Positions 28,197 to 62,024 of a DNA stretch of 64,000 nucleotides are shown here, one piece after another (position 1 is the first letter of the stretch; each line of letters opens with the position of its first letter). The translations under genes and the position numbers were made by a program. This DNA comes from an uncultured Gammaproteobacteria bacterium. GTDB lineage: Bacteria > Pseudomonadota > Gammaproteobacteria > UBA9214. Below the pieces are notes generated by a model. That model searched no databases. It was not told the origin of the DNA and saw only the letters and a program-made list of their open reading frames with translations. The stretch covers positions 928,001-992,000 of the forward strand of contig CAVVHS010000006.1 in assembly GCA_963748215.1 (NCBI GenBank), given 5' to 3'.

Positions 28197-28543
28197 TCTC
28201 GCGCACGACTACAAGGAGAAGGTGAGACCGGGAACCGGTCGAGAAGCTGGCCTGGGCCATGCAGGAGATACGAGTCCATGGATGGACTCGATAGAGCGAA
28301 GCAGGAGAAGGTGAGATCGCGCAACGATCGAGAGACTGGCCTGGGCCAGGCCGGAGCCGAGAGCAATGCAGGGAGCAATTGCCGAGAGACGCAGAGAAAG
28401 AAACGCCACAGAAGGCACAGAGCACACAGAGAAGGTCATTGTCATTCCCGTGCAGGCGGGGATTACATGTATACGTTCTGCGCCTGCCGTGATCCCTGTG
28501 GCAACAATTTGATTTATTTTGCGAGCTCTGCGACTCGCGCGAG
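28197..28543. repeat. Concentric nest of palindromic repeats containing four tiny inserts (2 x 48 nt, 2 x 42 nt)
   Basis: Outer IR tctcgcgca^gagacgcagag / ctctgcgactcgcgcgag; inner IR gccacag / ctgtggc; central gtcattccc hairpin; 180-nt insert block 28206-28385. Confidence 0.8.
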
Positions 28544-48822: not shown

Positions 48823-51584
<2,762 letters not shown>

Positions 51585-51674
51585 CGAGCCACCTGCTGAC
51601 CAAATCAAGGGATCAGCGCTTTTCTTACCCGAACTCCGTGCGATGCGCAATCGTTATTACAGGAGGACAATAAC

Positions 51675-51965
51675 GGGGTCAGCACCCTTTACTCACTCGG
51701 CCGTCTATTGCAGTCCAGGTTTCGGTAAATATAAAAAGGTACTGACCACATCTGTCCAAAATACCCCCTCTCCCTCCGGGAGAGGTCTGGGGAGAGGGGA
51801 TCAAATCAAGCCAACCGCCTGATTTTCCATCGCCTCATCCTGGTCGCTCACGGCATCCTGCCTCCCGCGACACTTGTACATCCCTGTACATCGTCCTTCT
51901 CCCGGAGGGACGCCGACAGGGATGTCGGCGGTAGAGCAACGCATGGAGCATTTGCCGAGAAGGGA
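51675..51965. repeat. REP cluster: GGGGTCAG hairpin plus CCCTCTCCC-type pair, the second arm carrying two tiny inserts
   Basis: 51675-51749; 51764-51799; 51833-51965 with inserts at 51844-51893/4 (minus) and 51911-51958 (plus). Confidence 0.8.
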
Positions 51966-52111
51966 CGCGCTGTTCATGTAATGATGTATAGCTTTCATGT
52001 CCTGTCGCTATCAACCGCTCCGTACAATGCGTTCATTCATGGACTTACTGTACCTCAGTCAATGTATGCGGCACAGCCATGGGTGCTGACCCATTTCCAG
52101 GCCACCGATCC

Positions 52112-55100
52112 CTACACTGCCGCCAGCTGTACCGCCTCGTCGATATCCACCGCGACCAGGCGCGACACGCCCGGCTCGTGCATGGTCACACCGGTCAGCT
52201 GCTGCGCCATTTCCATGGTGACCTTGTTATGCGTGATGAAGATGAATTGCACCTGTTCCGACATCTTGCGCACCATGTCGCAATAGCGGCTGACGTTGGC
52301 GTCGTCGAGCGGCGCATCCACCTCGTCGAGCATGCAGAACGGCGACGGGTTGAGGCGGAAAATCGCGAACACCAGCGCGATCGCGGTGAGCGCCTTCTCG
52401 CCGCCGGACAGCAGGTGAATGGTGCTGTTGCGCTTGCCCGGCGGGCGCGCCATGACGGTCACGCCGGTGTCGAGCAGGTCTTCGCCGGTCAGTTCCAGGT
52501 AGGCATGGCCGCCGCCGAACAGGGTCGGGAAATTTTCCTGCATGCCCTGGTTGACGCTGTCGAAGGTATCCTTGAAGCGGCTGCGGGTCTCGCGGTCGAT
52601 CTTGGCGATGGCGTTTTCCAGCGTCTGCAGCGCCTCGATGAGGTCGGCATGCTGCGCATCCAGGTAGATCTTGCGCTTGGACTCTTCCTCGTATTCCTCG
52701 ATGGCGGCCAGGTTGATCGGCCCCAGGCGCTGGATGCGCTGTTCCATCTTTTCGGCCTGCTCGGCCCACAGTTCGACCGTCGCCTCGGCGTCCATGTGCT
52801 CTAGCAGCAACTGGTATTCGAAGCCGGAGGCATTGATCTGCTCCAGCAGCGTGTCGGCACGCGTCTTGATTTCCTGCCAGGCCATGCGGTCCTGGGCCAG
52901 CTGTTCGCGCTGGCTGCCGATGGCGCGTTCCTTGCGGATGCGTTCCTGGTCCAGCTCGCGGGTGCCGTGCTCGATGTCCTCCACCTGCTTGCGCGCCGTA
53001 CCCAGTTCGGCCTCGGACGCGGAGCGCCGCGACAGCAGCCCCTCGAGCTCCTGTTCCAGCTCGACGATCGGGGTATCGCCCTGCCCCAGCACCACGGCCA
53101 GTTCATCGCGCCGCGTGACCAGCTGCTTGCTCTGCTCATGCATGCGCAGCAGGGCCTGGTCGGTCGAGGCCTGCGCGGTTCGTGTCGACTCGGCGCGGAT
53201 GGCGAGTTCGTGCGCGGCCTGCTGGTCGGCGCGGGCCCGTTCGCGCGCCGCGTCCAGCACGCCGGCCAGCTGTTGCTGTTCGCCGATGCGCTGCTCGCGT
53301 TCGTGGGTCAGGGCCTCGGTGGCGGCCAGCGCCTCGTCGAGCCGGTTGCGCGCCTCGGCCTGTTCCTGTTCTTCCTTTTCCTTTTCGGCGCGCAGCGCTT
53401 CCGATTCCATCAGCACATGGTCACGGCGGTGCTGCTGCTGTTCCAGGCGCGAGCGGTTGGCGGCAAGGCTGCCACGCAGGTCGCTGGCCTCGCGGTGCGC
53501 GGCATTGTATTCGTTCTGCAACTGGTCGCGTTCGGCCTCGGCGCTGCGCAGGCTTTCGCGCGCGGCGTCCACGGCCTCGCGCAGGGTCTCGATTTGCCCG
53601 GCCTGCTGCTCGCTGCGTTTGGTCAGCGCAGCGATGTCACGCTCGCGTTCCAGCACGCCGGCCTTTTCATCGGTGTCGCGCGCCACGCGCAGCCACTGCC
53701 GGCCGACCCAGATGCCCTCGCGCGTGATAACGGACTCGTGCGCAGCCAGCCGGTCACGCAGTGCCAGCGCATCGGCCAGCGAATCGGCGGCATAGATACC
53801 ATCCAGCAGACTGGCCATCGACCACGGTGCAGTGATCCTGTCGGCCAGCAGCACGCCCTTGCCGCGGTCGGCCGTGGCATCATTCTGGCCGGCGGTCTCG
53901 AACAGGGCCACGTTGCCCTGGTCCAGCCCACCCAGCACCCGCTCGGCGTCGTTCAGGCCGTCGACGCAGATCGCCTCCAGGTAGAAACCCAGCGCCGTCT
54001 CGATGGCGTGCTCCCAGCCGGCATCGACCTTGATGGATTGCGCCAGGCGCGGTGCGGACTGCAGGCCGTTGGCCTTCAGCCAGCCGCTGACCTGCTCGGA
54101 ACGCTGCCCGAGTGCGGCGCGCTGCAGTGTCTCCAGCGAGGCCAGCTGGCCTCGCGTGGCATGCTGTTCGCTCTGCAGCGCATCGACTTCCTGTTCCTGC
54201 TGGTAGATCCGGGTGCGCAGGTCGCTGATATGACGCACCGCGTTTTCCAGCTTTACCTGGATGCCGGAGACCACGGTTTCGCGACCTTCCAGCCGTTCTG
54301 CCGTCTGCCGGATCTCGTCCATCAGCGACTGGCCGCCCAGCGTCTGCTGCTCCTCGCCCATGCGCTGCAGCCGGGTATCCAGCTGCTGCACGTGGCGCTC
54401 GAGGTGATCGAGACGGGTGCGCTCGACCTGCGCCGACTGCGTACGCTCCGCGGTACGGCGGTTGAATTCGTCCCATTCCGACTGCCAGGCGCGCATCGAC
54501 TGCTCGGCCTCGGCCAGTTCGCCGGCCGAACGCTCGACGCGCTCGCGTGCCGCAAGCAGGTCCGGCTCGATGGTCGCGATGTTCTGTGCCAGTTCCTGCA
54601 GCCGCGCACTGTCCAGCCGGATGTGCGTCTCGATCTCGCCCAGGGTCTGCTCGACGCGGCCCAGTTCCTGCTGCTGTTGCTGTCGGGATTCGCGGTTGTG
54701 CTGGATCGCCTGCTCGATGCGCGCGACATCGGCACCCAGCTTGTAGTAGTGTCCCTGCACCTCGCTGAAGGCATCGTTGGCGTCGGCCAGCCCCTCGCGC
54801 AGTTTTTCCAGTTCCGCCTCGATACCGCGCTGTGCGGCCACCTCGGCTTCCAGTCCCAGCTCGCACTCCTGGATCGTGCGCTGGCGTTCGCTGCTCTGCT
54901 CGTGCATGGCGTGATAACGCAGCGTCAGCAGTTCCGCCTTGACCTGGCGTTCCTCTTCCTTGAGTTCCTTGTAGCGTTCCGCCGCGCGCGACTGGCGCTT
55001 GAGCTTGTCGAGCTGTTTGTCGATCTCTTCCAGCAGGTCGTTCAGGCGGTCGAGATTCTCGCGCGTGTGGCGGATGCGGTTTTCGGTCTCGCGGCGGCGC

Positions 55101-55624
55101 TCCTTGTACTTGGAGATGCCGGCGGCCTCTTCCAGGAAGGCGCGCAGATCGTCCGGCTTGGCCTCGATCAGGCGCGAGATGGTGCCTTGCTCGATAATGG
55201 AGTAGCTGCGCGGCCCGAGGCCGGTGCCGAGGAAGATATCGGTGATATCGCGGCGCCGGCAGCGCGTGTTGTTCAGGAAATAGTTCGAGGTACCGTCGCG
55301 CGACACCTGGCGCCGAATGGAAAGCTCGTTGAAACCCGCGTACTGGCCGCCGATGGTGCCATCACTGTTGTCGAAGGACAGCTCGATGCTGGCGTGACCG
55401 ACCGGCTTGCGGCCGTTGGAGCCGTTGAAGATGACATCCGTCATCGAATCGCCGCGCAGGTTCTTGGCAGATGACTCGCCCATCACCCAGCGCACGGCAT
55501 CTATAATATTGGACTTGCCGCAGCCGTTCGGACCGATGACGCCGACCAGGTTGCTGGGCAGGTGGATGGTGGTCGGATCGACGAAGGACTTGAATCCGGC
55601 CAGCTTGATTTTGGTCAAGCGCAT
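52112..55624 (-). CDS. smc: Chromosome segregation protein SMC
   Basis: GFKSF, GPNGCGKSN, long coiled coils with hinge, LSGGEK, LDEVDAPLD. Confidence 0.97.
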   Translation of the reverse strand: MRLTKIKLAGFKSFVDPTTIHLPSNLVGVIGPNGCGKSNIIDAVRWVMGESSAKNLRGDSMTDVIFNGSNGRKPVGHASIELSFDNSDGTIGGQYAGFNELSIRRQVSRDGTSNYFLNNTRCRRRDITDIFLGTGLGPRSYSIIEQGTISRLIEAKPDDLRAFLEEAAGISKYKERRRETENRIRHTRENLDRLNDLLEEIDKQLDKLKRQSRAAERYKELKEEERQVKAELLTLRYHAMHEQSSERQRTIQECELGLEAEVAAQRGIEAELEKLREGLADANDAFSEVQGHYYKLGADVARIEQAIQHNRESRQQQQQELGRVEQTLGEIETHIRLDSARLQELAQNIATIEPDLLAARERVERSAGELAEAEQSMRAWQSEWDEFNRRTAERTQSAQVERTRLDHLERHVQQLDTRLQRMGEEQQTLGGQSLMDEIRQTAERLEGRETVVSGIQVKLENAVRHISDLRTRIYQQEQEVDALQSEQHATRGQLASLETLQRAALGQRSEQVSGWLKANGLQSAPRLAQSIKVDAGWEHAIETALGFYLEAICVDGLNDAERVLGGLDQGNVALFETAGQNDATADRGKGVLLADRITAPWSMASLLDGIYAADSLADALALRDRLAAHESVITREGIWVGRQWLRVARDTDEKAGVLERERDIAALTKRSEQQAGQIETLREAVDAARESLRSAEAERDQLQNEYNAAHREASDLRGSLAANRSRLEQQQHRRDHVLMESEALRAEKEKEEQEQAEARNRLDEALAATEALTHEREQRIGEQQQLAGVLDAARERARADQQAAHELAIRAESTRTAQASTDQALLRMHEQSKQLVTRRDELAVVLGQGDTPIVELEQELEGLLSRRSASEAELGTARKQVEDIEHGTRELDQERIRKERAIGSQREQLAQDRMAWQEIKTRADTLLEQINASGFEYQLLLEHMDAEATVELWAEQAEKMEQRIQRLGPINLAAIEEYEEESKRKIYLDAQHADLIEALQTLENAIAKIDRETRSRFKDTFDSVNQGMQENFPTLFGGGHAYLELTGEDLLDTGVTVMARPPGKRNSTIHLLSGGEKALTAIALVFAIFRLNPSPFCMLDEVDAPLDDANVSRYCDMVRKMSEQVQFIFITHNKVTMEMAQQLTGVTMHEPGVSRLVAVDIDEAVQLAAV

Positions 55625-57674: not shown

Positions 57675-58193
57675 GGTTTCGCCCGTCGGGCGAGATACTT
57701 TTCTTTGCTTCGCCAAAGAAAAGTACCCAAAAGAAAGGCGATCCCGGAGGCTTGCCCGAAAAGACATCTTCGATGACTTTTCGGGTTCCCTGCGCTTCTC
57801 GCCGGTTTGGGCGCTCGCCGAACTCGCAGGATTTGCCGCGCCTTCCGGCTAGCAAATCCAGCTCGACACGGCGGCTCGCTCAATCCCAAACCGGCTGCGA
57901 TGCTCGGCAGCGCCTGACGGGGCTTGATGCGGCCACCCCCGGTCCCGTTGCCCGCGCCGAGTACCGCAGCCAGGCCGGGATACAGGCGCGCACCTTGTCC
58001 GAGGCAAGCCTGAGCGGGATTTCAATCCCGCTCAGGCTCCGAGTTGTGCGCGCCCCCGGCTTGGCGAGGAACGCAGGGCAAGGCTGCGTAGCGGCCTTGT
58101 AGTACAACCCGGCGCGAGCATCGGGTGCCCTTCTCTTTGGGTACTTTCTCTTGGGCACACAAGAGAAAGTACCTCGCCCTTCAGGGCGAAACC
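57675..58193. mobile_element. About 520-bp highly structured non-coding MITE-like element
   Basis: About 75-bp imperfect inverted arms ggtttcgccc..gggcgag.tacttttctttg..aaagtacccaaa / tttgggtactttctcttg..aaagtacctcgccc..gggcgaaacc; internal palindrome agcctgagcgggatttcaatcccgctcaggct. Confidence 0.75.
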
Positions 58194-58317: not shown

Positions 58318-59058
58318 ATGGCCAGCAAACACTCCGGAATGCATTACCTGCTGCAGGGACTCGGGCTGATACGCCAGACCGGGCTGCGCGCCTATGTGAT
58401 CGTACCGGTACTGGTCAGTGTGCTCTGCTTCGGCGGCGCGATTTTCGGCCTGTTCTACTGGCTGGACAGTCTGCTTGGTCCCCTGCTCGGCAAGCTGCCG
58501 GCGTGGCTCGACTGGCTGCGCTACCTGCTCTGGCCGCTGTTTGCGCTGACCTGCGTGCTGGTCGTGTTCTACGGTTTTTCGATCCTCACCAACCTGCTGG
58601 CGGCGCCGTTCAACGGCATGCTGGCCGAGGCCGTCGAACAGCATCTCACCGGGCAGCCGATCGACACCGGCGGCTGGCGTGCGCTGGTGCGGGACATCGC
58701 GCCCAGCCTGTTCTCGGAACTGCGCAAGCTGCTGTATTTCGTGCTGCGCGCCCTGCCGCTGGGACTGCTGTTCCTGATCCCCGGCATCAATGTCGCGGCG
58801 CCGTTTCTCTGGGCGCTGTTCAGCGCCTGGATGCTCGCCATCGAATACCTCGACTACCCGATGGCGAATCACTCGCTGCACTTCGCCGCGCAGCGCAAGC
58901 TGTTGCGCGGCAACCGCCTGCTGGCCTACGGCTTCGGCGGCAGCACGCTGTTGCTGACCATGATCCCGGTGCTGAACTTCATCGCCATGCCCGCCGCGGT
59001 GGCCGGCGCAACCGCGCTGTGGGTAGAGGAATTCCGGGACCGGTCACCGGATTTGTAG
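58318..59058 (+). CDS. cysZ: Sulfate transporter CysZ (EI24 family)
   Basis: NLLAAPFNGMLAEAVE, WMLAIEYLDYP, PAAVAGAT. Confidence 0.9.
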   Translation: MASKHSGMHYLLQGLGLIRQTGLRAYVIVPVLVSVLCFGGAIFGLFYWLDSLLGPLLGKLPAWLDWLRYLLWPLFALTCVLVVFYGFSILTNLLAAPFNGMLAEAVEQHLTGQPIDTGGWRALVRDIAPSLFSELRKLLYFVLRALPLGLLFLIPGINVAAPFLWALFSAWMLAIEYLDYPMANHSLHFAAQRKLLRGNRLLAYGFGGSTLLLTMIPVLNFIAMPAAVAGATALWVEEFRDRSPDL

Positions 59059-59120
59059 GAGCGCTTCGCAAGTTCGAGCTTTTCCGGACAGAAAGATCGC
59101 GGACGCGGTCCGCTCCTACA
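59053..59120. repeat. GTAG REP pair supplying the stop codons of both convergent genes
   Basis: tgtaggagcg ... cgctcctaca; TAG at 59056-59058 and CTA at 59116-59118. Confidence 0.8.
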
Positions 59121-60270
59121 ACAGATATGCCTGCAGGCGTCGCACGCCTTCCTGCAGGTTTTCCATCGAAGTCGTGTAGGCGAAGCGCACATGCCGCTCC
59201 GGGCTGTTGGTGCCGAAGTCGATACCGGGCGTGATCGCCACGCCCGCCTCTTCCAGCAACTGCTGCGAGAAGGCAAAGCTGTCCGCGGTAAAACGGCTGC
59301 AATCGGCATACAGGTAGAAGGCCCCGGCCGGCGTCACAGGGATGTCGAAACCGAGTTCGCGCAAGGCCGGCAACAGGAAATCGCGGCGCTGCCGGAATTC
59401 CTCGCGGCGCTGTTCCAGGATCGCGAGGGTATCCGGCTCGAACGCGCGCAGTGCGGCGTGCTGTGACAGCGTCGGCGCGGCGAGAAACAGGTTCTGCGCC
59501 AGCTTGTCGAGTTCCGGCACCAGCGCCTGCGGCGCCACCAGCCAGCCCAGCCGCCAGCCGGTCATGCCGAAATACTTGGAGAAACTGTTGATCACGACAA
59601 TCTCCTCGGACACGGCCAGCGCCGTGGGGTTGGCCGCATCGTAGACCAGGCCGTGATAGATCTCGTCGACGATCAGACTGCCGCCCTGTGTCTGCGCGAT
59701 CGCCAGGTACTCGCGCAGCGTGGTGGCATCGAGGAGGCTGCCGGTCGGATTCGAGGGCGAAGCCACCAGCAGGGCTGCGGTCTGCGCGTTCCAGTTATCG
59801 CGCACCTGCCGCACGGTCGGCTGGTAGCTGGATGCGGCATCGACCGGCAGGCTGACCGGTTCGCCGCCTAACAGGTGGACGAAAGTACGATTGCAGGGAT
59901 AACCCGGGTCGGCCAGCAATACACCATCGCCCGGGTTGACCAGCGCCGCCAGCACCAGTTGCAGCGCCGCCGAGGCGCCGGGTGTCACGACGATGCGCAC
60001 CGGGTCGACCTCGACGCCGTAGCGCGTGCCATAGAACGCGGCGATGCGCCGGCGCAACCCGGGCAGACCGGTCGCCGGGGTGTAGTGCGTGTGCCCTGCC
60101 GTCAGCGCGGCATGCCCGGCATCGATGACCGGTTGCGGCGTGACGAAATCCGGCTCGCCGATCTCCATATGGATAATTGAGCGCCCTGCCGCTTCCAGTT
60201 CGCGTGCGCGCGCCAGCAGTGCCATGACGTGAAACGGCTGGATGACCTGCATGCGACGTGCGATCTTCAT
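59116..60270 (-). CDS. PLP-dependent aminotransferase class I/II
   Basis: IGEPDF, SPSNPTG, DEIYHGL, NSFSKYFGMTGWRLGW. Confidence 0.92.
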   Translation of the reverse strand: MKIARRMQVIQPFHVMALLARARELEAAGRSIIHMEIGEPDFVTPQPVIDAGHAALTAGHTHYTPATGLPGLRRRIAAFYGTRYGVEVDPVRIVVTPGASAALQLVLAALVNPGDGVLLADPGYPCNRTFVHLLGGEPVSLPVDAASSYQPTVRQVRDNWNAQTAALLVASPSNPTGSLLDATTLREYLAIAQTQGGSLIVDEIYHGLVYDAANPTALAVSEEIVVINSFSKYFGMTGWRLGWLVAPQALVPELDKLAQNLFLAAPTLSQHAALRAFEPDTLAILEQRREEFRQRRDFLLPALRELGFDIPVTPAGAFYLYADCSRFTADSFAFSQQLLEEAGVAITPGIDFGTNSPERHVRFAYTTSMENLQEGVRRLQAYLL

Positions 60271-61283: not shown

Positions 61284-62024
61284 ATGGCTGTTAAAAAGAA
61301 GGCAGTAAAGTCAAAGGCAACGAAGAAGAAGACCGTCTCCAGGGCAAAGCCGGCCAGGAAAACAACAGCAAAGAAAGCCGCCCCTGCCAGGAAAGCCGCA
61401 CCGAAAAAAGCCGCATCGAAAAAAGCCGCACCTGTAAAAAAAGCCGCGCCGAAAAAAGCTGCCCCTGCAAAGAAAGCCGCACCGAAAAAGGCCGCACCTG
61501 TAAAGAAAGCCGCGCCGAAAAAGGCCGCCCCTGCCAGAAAAGCCGCGCCGAAAAAGGTCGCCACATCCACCCGTGCAGTCACGACGGCACGGAAGAAAGC
61601 CAGCGGGCAGATCGGACCCGTGCCCGGCATCGCGGCGTATGCCGAAAAAAGGGGCGAGGAATACATGAATGACAAACAGGTCGCGCACTTCCGCAATATC
61701 CTCCAGGCCTGGAAGCGCAGCCTGATGGAAGAAGTCGACCGTACCGTGCACCACATGCAGGACGATGCCGCGAATTTCCCGGACCCGAACGACCGTGCAA
61801 CCCAGGAATCCGAATTCAGCATGGAACTTCGCGCACGTGACCGCGAGCGCAAGCTGATCAAAAAGATCGAAGAATCGATTCGACATCTCGACAACGACGA
61901 CTTTGGTTACTGCGAGGCCTGCGGCGTGGAAATCGGCGTCAAGCGGCTCGAGGCACGTCCGACCGCGACACTGTGCATCGACTGCAAGATCCTCGACGAG
62001 ATCCGCGAAAAGCAGATGGGCTGA
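61284..62024 (+). CDS. dksA: RNA polymerase-binding protein DksA with N-terminal histone H1-like repeats
   Basis: EEYMND, FPDPNDRATQE, CEACG..CIDC Zn finger; KKAAP repeats. Confidence 0.95.
   Translation: MAVKKKAVKSKATKKKTVSRAKPARKTTAKKAAPARKAAPKKAASKKAAPVKKAAPKKAAPAKKAAPKKAAPVKKAAPKKAAPARKAAPKKVATSTRAVTTARKKASGQIGPVPGIAAYAEKRGEEYMNDKQVAHFRNILQAWKRSLMEEVDRTVHHMQDDAANFPDPNDRATQESEFSMELRARDRERKLIKKIEESIRHLDNDDFGYCEACGVEIGVKRLEARPTATLCIDCKILDEIREKQMG

Follow-up and report, generated by a model that had tools for sequence, protein, structure and literature searches.

The DNA considered here is a window of 64,000 nucleotides (nt) from an uncultured gammaproteobacterium (assembly GCA_963748215.1, contig CAVVHS010000006.1, positions 928,001 to 992,000), whose genome, the source genome below (G000), comprises 3.52 Mb in nine contigs labelled C1-C9. 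Two genes on the minus strand of the window, one for an SMC protein (52112-55624) and one for a protein with a ZipA C-terminal domain (50841-51650), are separated by a spacer that holds, antisense to smc-zipA, a 48-nt unit at 51911-51958. A sequence-only reading of this stretch had described these letters as an intact element of exactly 48 nt whose removal restores a perfect host hairpin, and both statements hold. The letters are found there as quoted, occur once in the window at ≤3 mismatches (chance expectation 0, from 100 shuffles) and stand between ccttctcccggaggga on the 5' side and gaagg on the 3' side; excising them yields the perfect 9-base-pair hairpin ccttctccc-gga-gggagaagg. The unit, and the family to which it belongs, are real. 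Its parts are as follows.

51911-51958, plus strand: 48-nt two-hairpin insertion element (exact sequence; covariance model)
51911-51930, plus strand: hairpin 1, CGCCGACA-GGGA-TGTCGGCG, loop NGGA (predicted fold)
51931-51934, plus strand: GTAG tag between the hairpins, 5' of hairpin 2, unit positions 21-24 (aligned copies)
51936-51955, plus strand: hairpin 2, GCAAC GC-ATGGA-GC A(T)TTGC (predicted fold)

Folded as single-stranded DNA, the unit reaches -13.4 kcal/mol, against -6.3±1.8 kcal/mol for shuffled versions (0/200 shuffles as good), and it is the top match in the window of a covariance model built from 38 aligned copies (73.2 bits, E 1.4e-14). From its 5' end the unit is predicted to consist of CGA, then hairpin 1 with the loop NGGA, the linker GG-GTAG-A, hairpin 2 with the loop A(N)GGA and one unpaired A, and lastly CGA as a tail. 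Across the 38-copy alignment the GGA of both loops, the GGTAG linker and the GCCGA end are invariant or nearly so, with T22 and G24 invariant and A23 at least 90% conserved, and hairpin 2 keeps its unpaired A40. The hairpin 1 stem of the copy at 51911-51958 is a perfect 8-base-pair helix around GGGA: pairs 2-19 and 3-18, which are G.A/A.G mismatches in most copies and form the mismatch pair typical of the main subfamily, are Watson-Crick here, and pair 5-16 is altered on both sides relative to that subfamily. Its hairpin 2 contains a single C.T mismatch in addition to A40.

It had been noticed, from copies in the window, that the 5' stem changes its letters while keeping its pairing, and covariation is indeed present in both stems. 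In the seed alignment five of the 15 pairs vary on both sides, with 25 compensatory cells against 6.4±1.8 in shuffled alignments (0/500 reach the observed count). Among the public matches listed, in an alignment of 107 matches (73 distinct) from 100 of the at least 120 public loci, which was fitted to the covariance model and so favours structure, and in which hairpin 1 lay outside the pattern used to fetch the matches, seven of 15 pairs do so, with 63 compensatory cells against 12.6±2.8 (again 0/500); slid controls of this second test collapse. The covarying pairs include 5-16 and 6-15 in hairpin 1 and 27-44 (CG 60, UA 12) and 30-41 (CG 48, UA 23) in hairpin 2. These compensatory changes argue that both hairpin structures are under selection. 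They make the structure-based recognition proposed earlier plausible.

A profile search (nhmmer) of the source genome found 21 full two-hairpin units of 47-48 nt and 45 copies of the 3' module (E≤0.05), the latter joined to several 5' modules, and the covariance model gave 31 matches. Modules are shuffled among the arrays of this genome, and a 69-nt composite of hairpin and unit recurs in relatives at 84-93% identity. Every one of the 45 3'-module copies is either intergenic or inside an open reading frame (ORF) that has no Pfam match; ten ORFs overlap unit copies, none of the ten has a Pfam match, and 0/45 copies fall in a supported gene. Covariance-model matches are present in 36 of 37 genomes of the genus, at 0-35 copies per genome, and in 27 of 151 gammaproteobacterial genomes sampled at one per family, many of them near full score. 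A pattern scan of named genomes added at least 120 public loci, whose hosts include Shewanella, Methylobacter, Methylovulum, Methylomarinum, Sedimenticola and Thiohalomonas, and metagenome-assembled genomes of Lysobacterales, Acidiferrobacterales and Arenicellales. Second replicons of Pseudoalteromonas carry the unit as well. Among the 114 public copies listed, 65 measure 48 nt and 49 (43%) measure 47 nt. Head-to-tail arrays of up to seven 47-nt units are found at L192 (G100:C1:4134696-4135024) and at six further loci (L193-L198), G100 being a 4.3-Mb genome of another family and a host of such arrays. None of 50,697 phage records matched the unit and 2.9 million viral contigs held eight unit loci, so there is no sign of wide carriage by phages.

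The flanks of the units are not random. The sequence-only reading, which random flanks or a lack of covariation would have refuted, passes on both counts. Over 108 distinct sites among the public matches listed, A occupies position -1 in 89% and T in 10%, G occupies position +1 in 88%, and position +2 holds G (57%) or A (33%); GCA^GGA is the most frequent junction. The A^GA target proposed from the sequence alone stands as far as A^G is concerned, and the three units of the window do sit at A^GA; the rule itself is A^GR, with GG commoner than GA. Empty counterparts of the filled site exist within the source genome, where a paralogue at C8:55217 reads ccttctcccggcgggagaagggacgc and another, at C7:212412, is also empty. 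Of 20 loci taken from relatives, three lacked a copy; the 17 copies found all occupy GGGA^GA(G/A)G in hairpins of the form ccctctccc-loop-gggagaggg, whichever way round the host lies. Units also lie within units, at GGTA^GAG (A2 in A1, described below, and L123) and at AGGA^GGTAG (L075), and they occupy the loops of other hairpin repeats, including a repetitive extragenic palindrome (REP) that flanks the gene of a REP-associated tyrosine transposase (RAYT) in G104. At 8 of the 108 sites a perfect host stem of ≥6 base pairs surrounds the junction, where 0.95 would be expected and 200 permutations gave 4 at most, which indicates that hairpins are favoured as hosts and not required.

Clean filled and empty alleles also come from a protein-coding gene. 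A 48-nt variant lies inside the BREX-1 methyltransferase gene pglX on a Moellerella plasmid (L210) and a Salmonella plasmid (L213), and 64 of 66 plasmid pglX homologues are exactly 48 nt shorter at the unit's site, the empty site reading TTCAATGCA^GACAAC in the alignment. The insertion is in frame and adds 16 residues, DDCMDAGGRATQDAKA in our own translation. Among 5,426 complete Escherichia coli genomes the 48-mer occurs in two, both times in pglX (the ZF31 and ZF34 chromosomes). Separately, the Salmonella pglX allele also lacks 30 nt just upstream of the unit. The suggestion that lengths in multiples of three would keep the reading frame thus has one example in its favour, the 16 residues of pglX; since 49 of the 114 public copies listed are 47 nt long, the length of the unit is not tuned to codons.

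Filled and empty pairs give a target duplication of 0 or at most 1 nt (A). The boundary slides by one A, and a duplication of 1 nt may have occurred; a 2-nt GA duplication was considered and rejected, as G occupies position -2 in only 30% of sites. With the empty paralogous sites, the nesting of 48-mer in 48-mer and the exact 48-nt gap in the pglX homologues, the earlier proposal of precise insertion is well founded, and very probably the family is mobile and inserts precisely, or did so until recently. The units are inserted precisely at A^GR (YC^T on the other strand), with no duplication or at most one A, and they favour other hairpin repeats between genes, the family's own copies included, where they enter purine-rich arms or loops.

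The nesting is displayed within the window itself.

28206-28385, plus strand: nested array, unit A1 with a 42-mer (28218-28259) and unit A2 (28271-28360), A2 with a second 42-mer (decoding, covariance model)

Unit A1 (28206-28217, 28260-28270 and 28361-28385; 48 nt in sum) lies at ctcgcgca^gagacgcagag and is interrupted by the 42-mer at 28218-28259 and by A2, which in turn (28271-28306 and 28349-28360; again 48 nt) lies at GATA^GAG and is split by the 42-mer at 28307-28348. This decoding agrees with the earlier observation that A1, A2 and the unit at 51911-51958 start with CG, end with GCCGA and sit at A^GA, and a hand count of 10 differences matches the 38/48 identity to A1 reported then. Two other small elements share such arrays. 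The 42-nt element (GAAGGTGAGA..CTGGCCTGGGCCA) has two hairpins, sits in hairpin loops after GGA at both of its positions here, lacks GTAG and has junctions unlike those of the 48-mer; many arrays of the source genome contain further copies of it, and it is also present in another family (L061). A mini-element of 22-23 nt (CCAAMAGTAGGCGCC...GGCG), with a GTAG and a small palindrome of its own, lies inside hairpin 2 of seven units at the target GAG(C/T)A^A(C/T)GC, for example at C6:418066-418118, C5:142872-142941 and C3:166343-166390 of the source genome, and at four more positions.

The agent that moves the units is suggested by their REP-like look, a GTAG standing 5' of an imperfect hairpin that is followed by a 3-nt tail. 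According to PMC3333891, GTAG 5' of an imperfect palindrome is the hallmark of REPs, and the E. coli enzyme TnpA-REP requires GTAG and a stem mismatch and cleaves at C^T (CC^T in inverted REPs), one site lying inside CTAC. On the bottom strand the units' target A^GR becomes YC^T, and GGTA^GAG, where units nest, becomes C^TAC. A RAYT match (E≤1e-10) was found in 21 of 26 unit-positive and 65 of 124 unit-negative class genomes, the latter including two flagged unpublished (G075 and G177), which gives an odds ratio of 3.8 (Fisher p 0.009). Our best available inference, and not a finding, is that the mover is a Y1/HUH enzyme, to which we give slightly less than an even chance. On this view an HUH Y1 transposase of RAYT or TIRYT type would act in trans to cut the units and join them again, the mobile form being a single-stranded DNA hairpin, and the units would be parasites of a RAYT-like enzyme instead of its cognate REP. 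Taken jointly with this mechanism, the proposition that the 48 bases at 51911-51958 belong, as a single copy, to a family of miniature non-coding insertion elements, 47 or 48 nt long, stands evenly balanced.

A number of observations weigh against a Y1/HUH mover. The unit flanks none of the 16 Y1 genes examined (six from the source genome, nine classical RAYTs belonging to other families, and a single TIRYT; L011-L015, L200-L209 and L233). The two classical RAYTs of the source genome are flanked by REPs of their own, of the GTAGGGTGCG... and GTAGGAGCGG... types, its four longer RAYT-like genes by GGGG(T/A)CAGAC-type ends, and the nine classical RAYTs from other families each by their own GTAGG-type REP; GGGG-type ends fit the TIRYT class as PMC3733652 describes it. 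In the same way a TIRYT-like gene near a unit in G104 (L233) has its own GGGGTCAAA ends, and none of the 22 Y1_Tnp matches of G100 lies within 13 kb of a listed unit. Five of the 26 unit-positive class genomes have no RAYT at E≤1e-10, two of them being 97-98% complete, and in G173, a genome 73% complete, 21 copies occur where no Y1_Tnp match does. Copy number in the genus is not tied to the presence of a RAYT (means of 14.0 in genomes that have one and 10.2 in those that do not; Mann-Whitney p 0.21), and genomes without a classical RAYT hold up to 23 copies. IS608-type elements show a replication-strand bias; the units show none (26 leading and 19 lagging, p 0.37, by local GC skew in the source genome). 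On the C^T strand the other end of the unit is G^T, and no GTAG-oriented REP stands there, so the E. coli rules fit only in part, and the agreement with C^T may be fortuitous, since the 42-mer and the 22/23-mer, which nest alongside the units, have different junctions. Further results set limits of another kind. All 22 hairpin 1 matches in the source genome are known units or nested arrays, and no gene was found between the two hairpins in that genome, a weak look in which the companion hairpin 2 pattern matched nothing. No allele lacking exactly 51911-51958 was seen in the contigs of four sequencing runs, contigs being prone to drop rare variants.

Much of this would be expected if the units are mobile and moved by some enzyme other than Y1/HUH, either an unrecognised recombinase or a housekeeping enzyme of single-stranded DNA, an explanation we regard as possible and as less probable than a Y1/HUH mover. 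The 0/16 Y1 genes flanked by the unit, the unit-positive genomes without a detectable RAYT, the lack of strand bias and the copy numbers unrelated to RAYT presence all favour it, as do a target that, unlike IS608-type targets, is informative on both sides of the cut, and the near-identity of the units across 27 of 151 families, in each of which the RAYTs go with cognate REPs of a different kind. Cyanobacteria reportedly offer a parallel case in their very small dispersed repeats, whose mover has likewise been left open. It is opposed by the invariant GTAG with its imperfect hairpin, which TnpA-REP reads (PMC3333891), by the bottom-strand YC^T target and C^TAC nesting site that match TnpA-REP cleavage, and by the enrichment of RAYTs, at the odds ratio given above, in unit-positive genomes. 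We know of no other reader of an invariant GTAG with an imperfect hairpin. No alternative enzyme turned up either: inverted unit pairs bracket unrelated ORFs, as judged by eye. One of these ORFs is presumably DksA/TraR-like and another ParA-like. A third, of 138 residues (L188 659-1075; C2:264558-264974 of the source genome, minus strand) lies exactly between two inverted 48-mers 555 nt apart and may be a small nuclease of the GxxExxY / PD-(D/E)XK type.

Some further observations concern Y1 genes. Longer Y1 genes (about 250-370 residues, below the RAYT cut-off; L011-L014 in the source genome and L233 in G104) have GGGG(T/A)CA-type inverted ends, fitting the TIRYT class. REPs of the form gggtgcgt(t/a)..acgcaccc at 1381-1449 of the window are the flanking repeats of the best-scoring RAYT gene (C9:60138-60590, 174.8 bits), and classical GTAGGAGCG-type REPs at 59039-59159 of the window also flank the matching RAYT gene at C2:111848-112264 of the source genome.

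It is interesting to speculate on a broader reading, which we consider unlikely, that with the 47/48-mer bacteria have a mobile DNA of a new class, the smallest transposable unit so far whose sequence is conserved, which has no enzyme of its own, is the cognate repeat of no RAYT and lives as a generalist hyper-parasite. If so, the unit would offer only GTAG and an imperfect hairpin, to be read by many HUH enzymes or by a housekeeping enzyme of single-stranded DNA, and this would account for near-identical copies in more than 25 gammaproteobacterial families and for insertions into resident REPs. The hairpins with GGA loops might moreover seed binding sites for CsrA/RsmA, and tandem arrays might give rise to sponge-like RNAs.

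A cellular function of this kind could also be put forward as the reason for conservation in the first place, the unit serving for example as a portable CsrA/RsmA-binding module and the tandem arrays as CsrB-like sponges; we consider this improbable. The binding rule, GGA in a hairpin loop, and the consensus RUACARGGAUGU from in vitro selection (SELEX) are given in PMC4347634. GGA does occur in both hairpin loops, with AGGAGG in the linker, and seven-unit arrays would hold about 21 GGA motifs. Loop 1 is NGGA in 112 of the 114 public copies listed and loop 2 ends in GGA in all 114, although the scan pattern required GGAGCA, so that only loop 1 is a free observation. By hand count hairpin 1 matches the CsrA consensus at 11 of 12 positions in the genus consensus and at 10 of 12 in the copy at 51911-51958, but most of the public copies listed match at 8-9 of 12 and lack the ACA core. 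Orientation relative to neighbouring genes is unbiased (14 same, 10 opposite), the copy at 51911-51958 is itself antisense to smc-zipA, and searches of the tandem arrays of G100 and G152 against Rfam gave no relevant match at E≤1 and no CsrB or Rsm family. The precise insertions would, in addition, be left unexplained.

The neighbourhood of the unit bears on how this particular copy arrived. The spacer between smc and zipA contains, with no strand assigned, the following features.

51675-51747: small repeat with inverted ends (ggggtcagcaccc...ggtactgacc), separate from the larger host repeat
51749-52078: host repeat of about 330 nt resembling a MITE (miniature transposable element with inverted repeats), which carries the interrupted hairpin (paralogues)
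51764-51799: uninterrupted double hairpin ccccctctccc-tcc-gggagagg...ggggagagggg, the type of site that holds the 48-mer in relatives
51840-51894: 55-nt dispersed repeat in the pile-up (many 91-98% matches in genomes of the genus)
51895-51910: portion of the host hairpin 5' of the unit, ccttctccc gga ggga (flanks; empty paralogue)
51959-51963: 3' remainder of the host hairpin arm, gaagg (flanks; empty paralogue)

The ends of the first of these fit the GGGGWSAS motif of TIRYT-flanking repeats (PMC3733652), and a search of Rfam around the site of the unit gave nothing relevant at E≤10. The aligned blocks of the two genes are 459 nt apart here compared with 27 nt in the nearest relative, G002; the spacer is short in G004 and G021 too, and contigs of two sequencing runs connect 51664 to 52111 through 28 other letters. 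The short spacers of relatives together with these bridging contigs indicate that the whole smc-zipA spacer is a pile-up of repeats. The contig joints at the spacer correspond to a relative's short spacer and to paralogues, and contigs of three runs (X1, X2 and X4) span the filled site without any difference. The unit occupies the 3' arm of a hairpin within a larger MITE-like repeat, and repeat pile-up has inflated the spacer.

Paralogues of the host repeat occur without the unit (C8:55050-55400 and C7:212250-212520) and with longer composite inserts (C9:414050-414560 and C3:139700-140100). The 3' part of the repeat at 51749-52078 is 89% identical to the filled copy on C9, compared with 61% and 74% for the empty paralogues, and the C9 insert ends in the same rare ...GCATTTGCCGA at the same site, a rare T at position 41 being common to both. 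From this likeness and the common rare end, the insertion is probably older than the duplication of the host repeat, and the copy at 51911-51958 probably reached the smc-zipA spacer as a passenger of its host. The sequence-only reading had called the element independent, which is so relative to A1 and A2 but does not extend to the C9 copy, with which it has a filled ancestor in common; the three unrelated hosts that it named are themselves repeats.

That the units are immobile alone, their mosaics arising from recombination, gene conversion and slippage and the 48-mer travelling only within larger repeats, fits this shared descent of the copies at 51911-51958 and on C9 (89% alike, with the same rare T41), the recurring 69-nt composite, the shuffled modules and the tandem arrays (seven units of 47 nt in G100), but is the least probable explanation of all, slightly behind a CsrA/RsmA module, in view of the exact 48-nt indel inside a unique protein-coding gene, pglX, with alleles otherwise collinear, the 108 distinct flank pairs that have only A^GR in common, the single-copy contexts of units in many families and the self-nesting at defined sites.

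Two further repeats of the window may be mentioned. Palindromic repeats of the aaagaaagtacc type are present at 57696-57731 and 58105-58179, and palindromes of this type host 47-mers in Methylovulum and Methylobacter (L084, L111, L133 and L185), with T rather than A at position -1. A 15/18-nt period is repeated in ten overlapping copies at 61347-61559, where it encodes a run rich in Lys, Ala and Pro (AAPKK-like) that may resemble histone-H1-like or AlgP-like proteins.

Returning to movement by a Y1/HUH enzyme, the argument for REP movement has so far been made mostly from indirect evidence, and the unit family is unusually clean material, with fixed ends, a short target rule, self-nesting and a recent exact insertion in a plasmid-borne gene. 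Near-identical copies are available in cultured hosts (Shewanella, Pseudoalteromonas and Methylobacter), where mobility is testable. If one enzyme family moves the unit across lineages, the unit would provide a simple system for the transposition of single-stranded hairpins and a marker of horizontal exchange among the Gammaproteobacteria. The smc-zipA spacer, for its part, illustrates how intergenic spacers grow.

Compared with known systems, the unit is closest in character to REPs, with their REPIN and BIME arrangements and RAYT enzymes. It shares with them short extragenic hairpin repeats in gammaproteobacteria, covarying stems and mosaic clustering, a GTAG conserved at the base of an imperfect palindrome, a C^T target on one strand like that of TnpA-REP cleavage, and high copy number at extragenic positions in the source genome; occasional in-frame copies in genes and insertion within palindromic targets are likewise features of REPs in PMC3733652. 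In contrast to REPs, REPINs and BIMEs, it is a fixed sequence of 47/48 nt in which two unlike hairpins follow in direct order, rather than a single palindrome or an inverted doublet, and its copies are single, nested or head-to-tail, with no inverted pair forming one long hairpin. It adjoins no RAYT gene among the 16 examined and inserts into the REPs of resident RAYTs; its sequence is nearly constant over 27 of 151 families, in contrast to cognate REPs, which vary by lineage; and its ends are defined by clean filled and empty sites.

With the IS200/IS605 elements and their gene-less derivatives, as PMC3333891 presents them, the unit has in common subterminal hairpins, the absence of terminal inverted repeats and a target duplication that is nil or nearly so. 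Like them it inserts in a specific orientation beside a short target, and head-to-tail tandems would be expected if the end of the element mimics the target. It differs in that no autonomous copy was found in a weak look at the source genome, in that hairpin 1 starts 3 nt from the end and leaves no room for an IS608-like guide, and in a target informative on both sides of the cut with no replication-strand bias (26 versus 19). MITEs are further removed, as the ends of the unit (CGAC... and ...GCCGA) are not inverted repeats and any duplication is at most a single A. The very small dispersed repeats (SDR) of cyanobacteria, which Elhai et al. are said to have described in 2008, are reportedly tens of bases long, hairpin-forming, nested and without a known transposase; they belong to another phylum, and their sequences, of 21-27 nt, are reportedly unrelated. 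Rickettsia palindromic elements (RPEs) resemble the unit in that palindromic repeats can sit in frame in protein genes (PMC3733652), but RPEs are longer and lineage-restricted, and the unit was found in only one gene, pglX, with 43% of the public copies listed at 47 nt.

Miniature mobile repeats of the REP type that nest, target palindromes and sometimes sit in genes are thus a known kind (PMC3733652; PMC3116915). Hairpin 2 may be the same as a Shewanella GTAG family of PMC3733652. In the literature searched, with five words of 13-17 nt, the sequence of the unit was not found printed, the only two matches being in human studies, and neither was the combination of a fixed 47/48-nt pair of unlike hairpins, an internal GTAG, an A^GR target, no link to a RAYT gene and near-identity across families found described. 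The element is real and well defined: its kind is known, and the particular unit is, as far as found, new.

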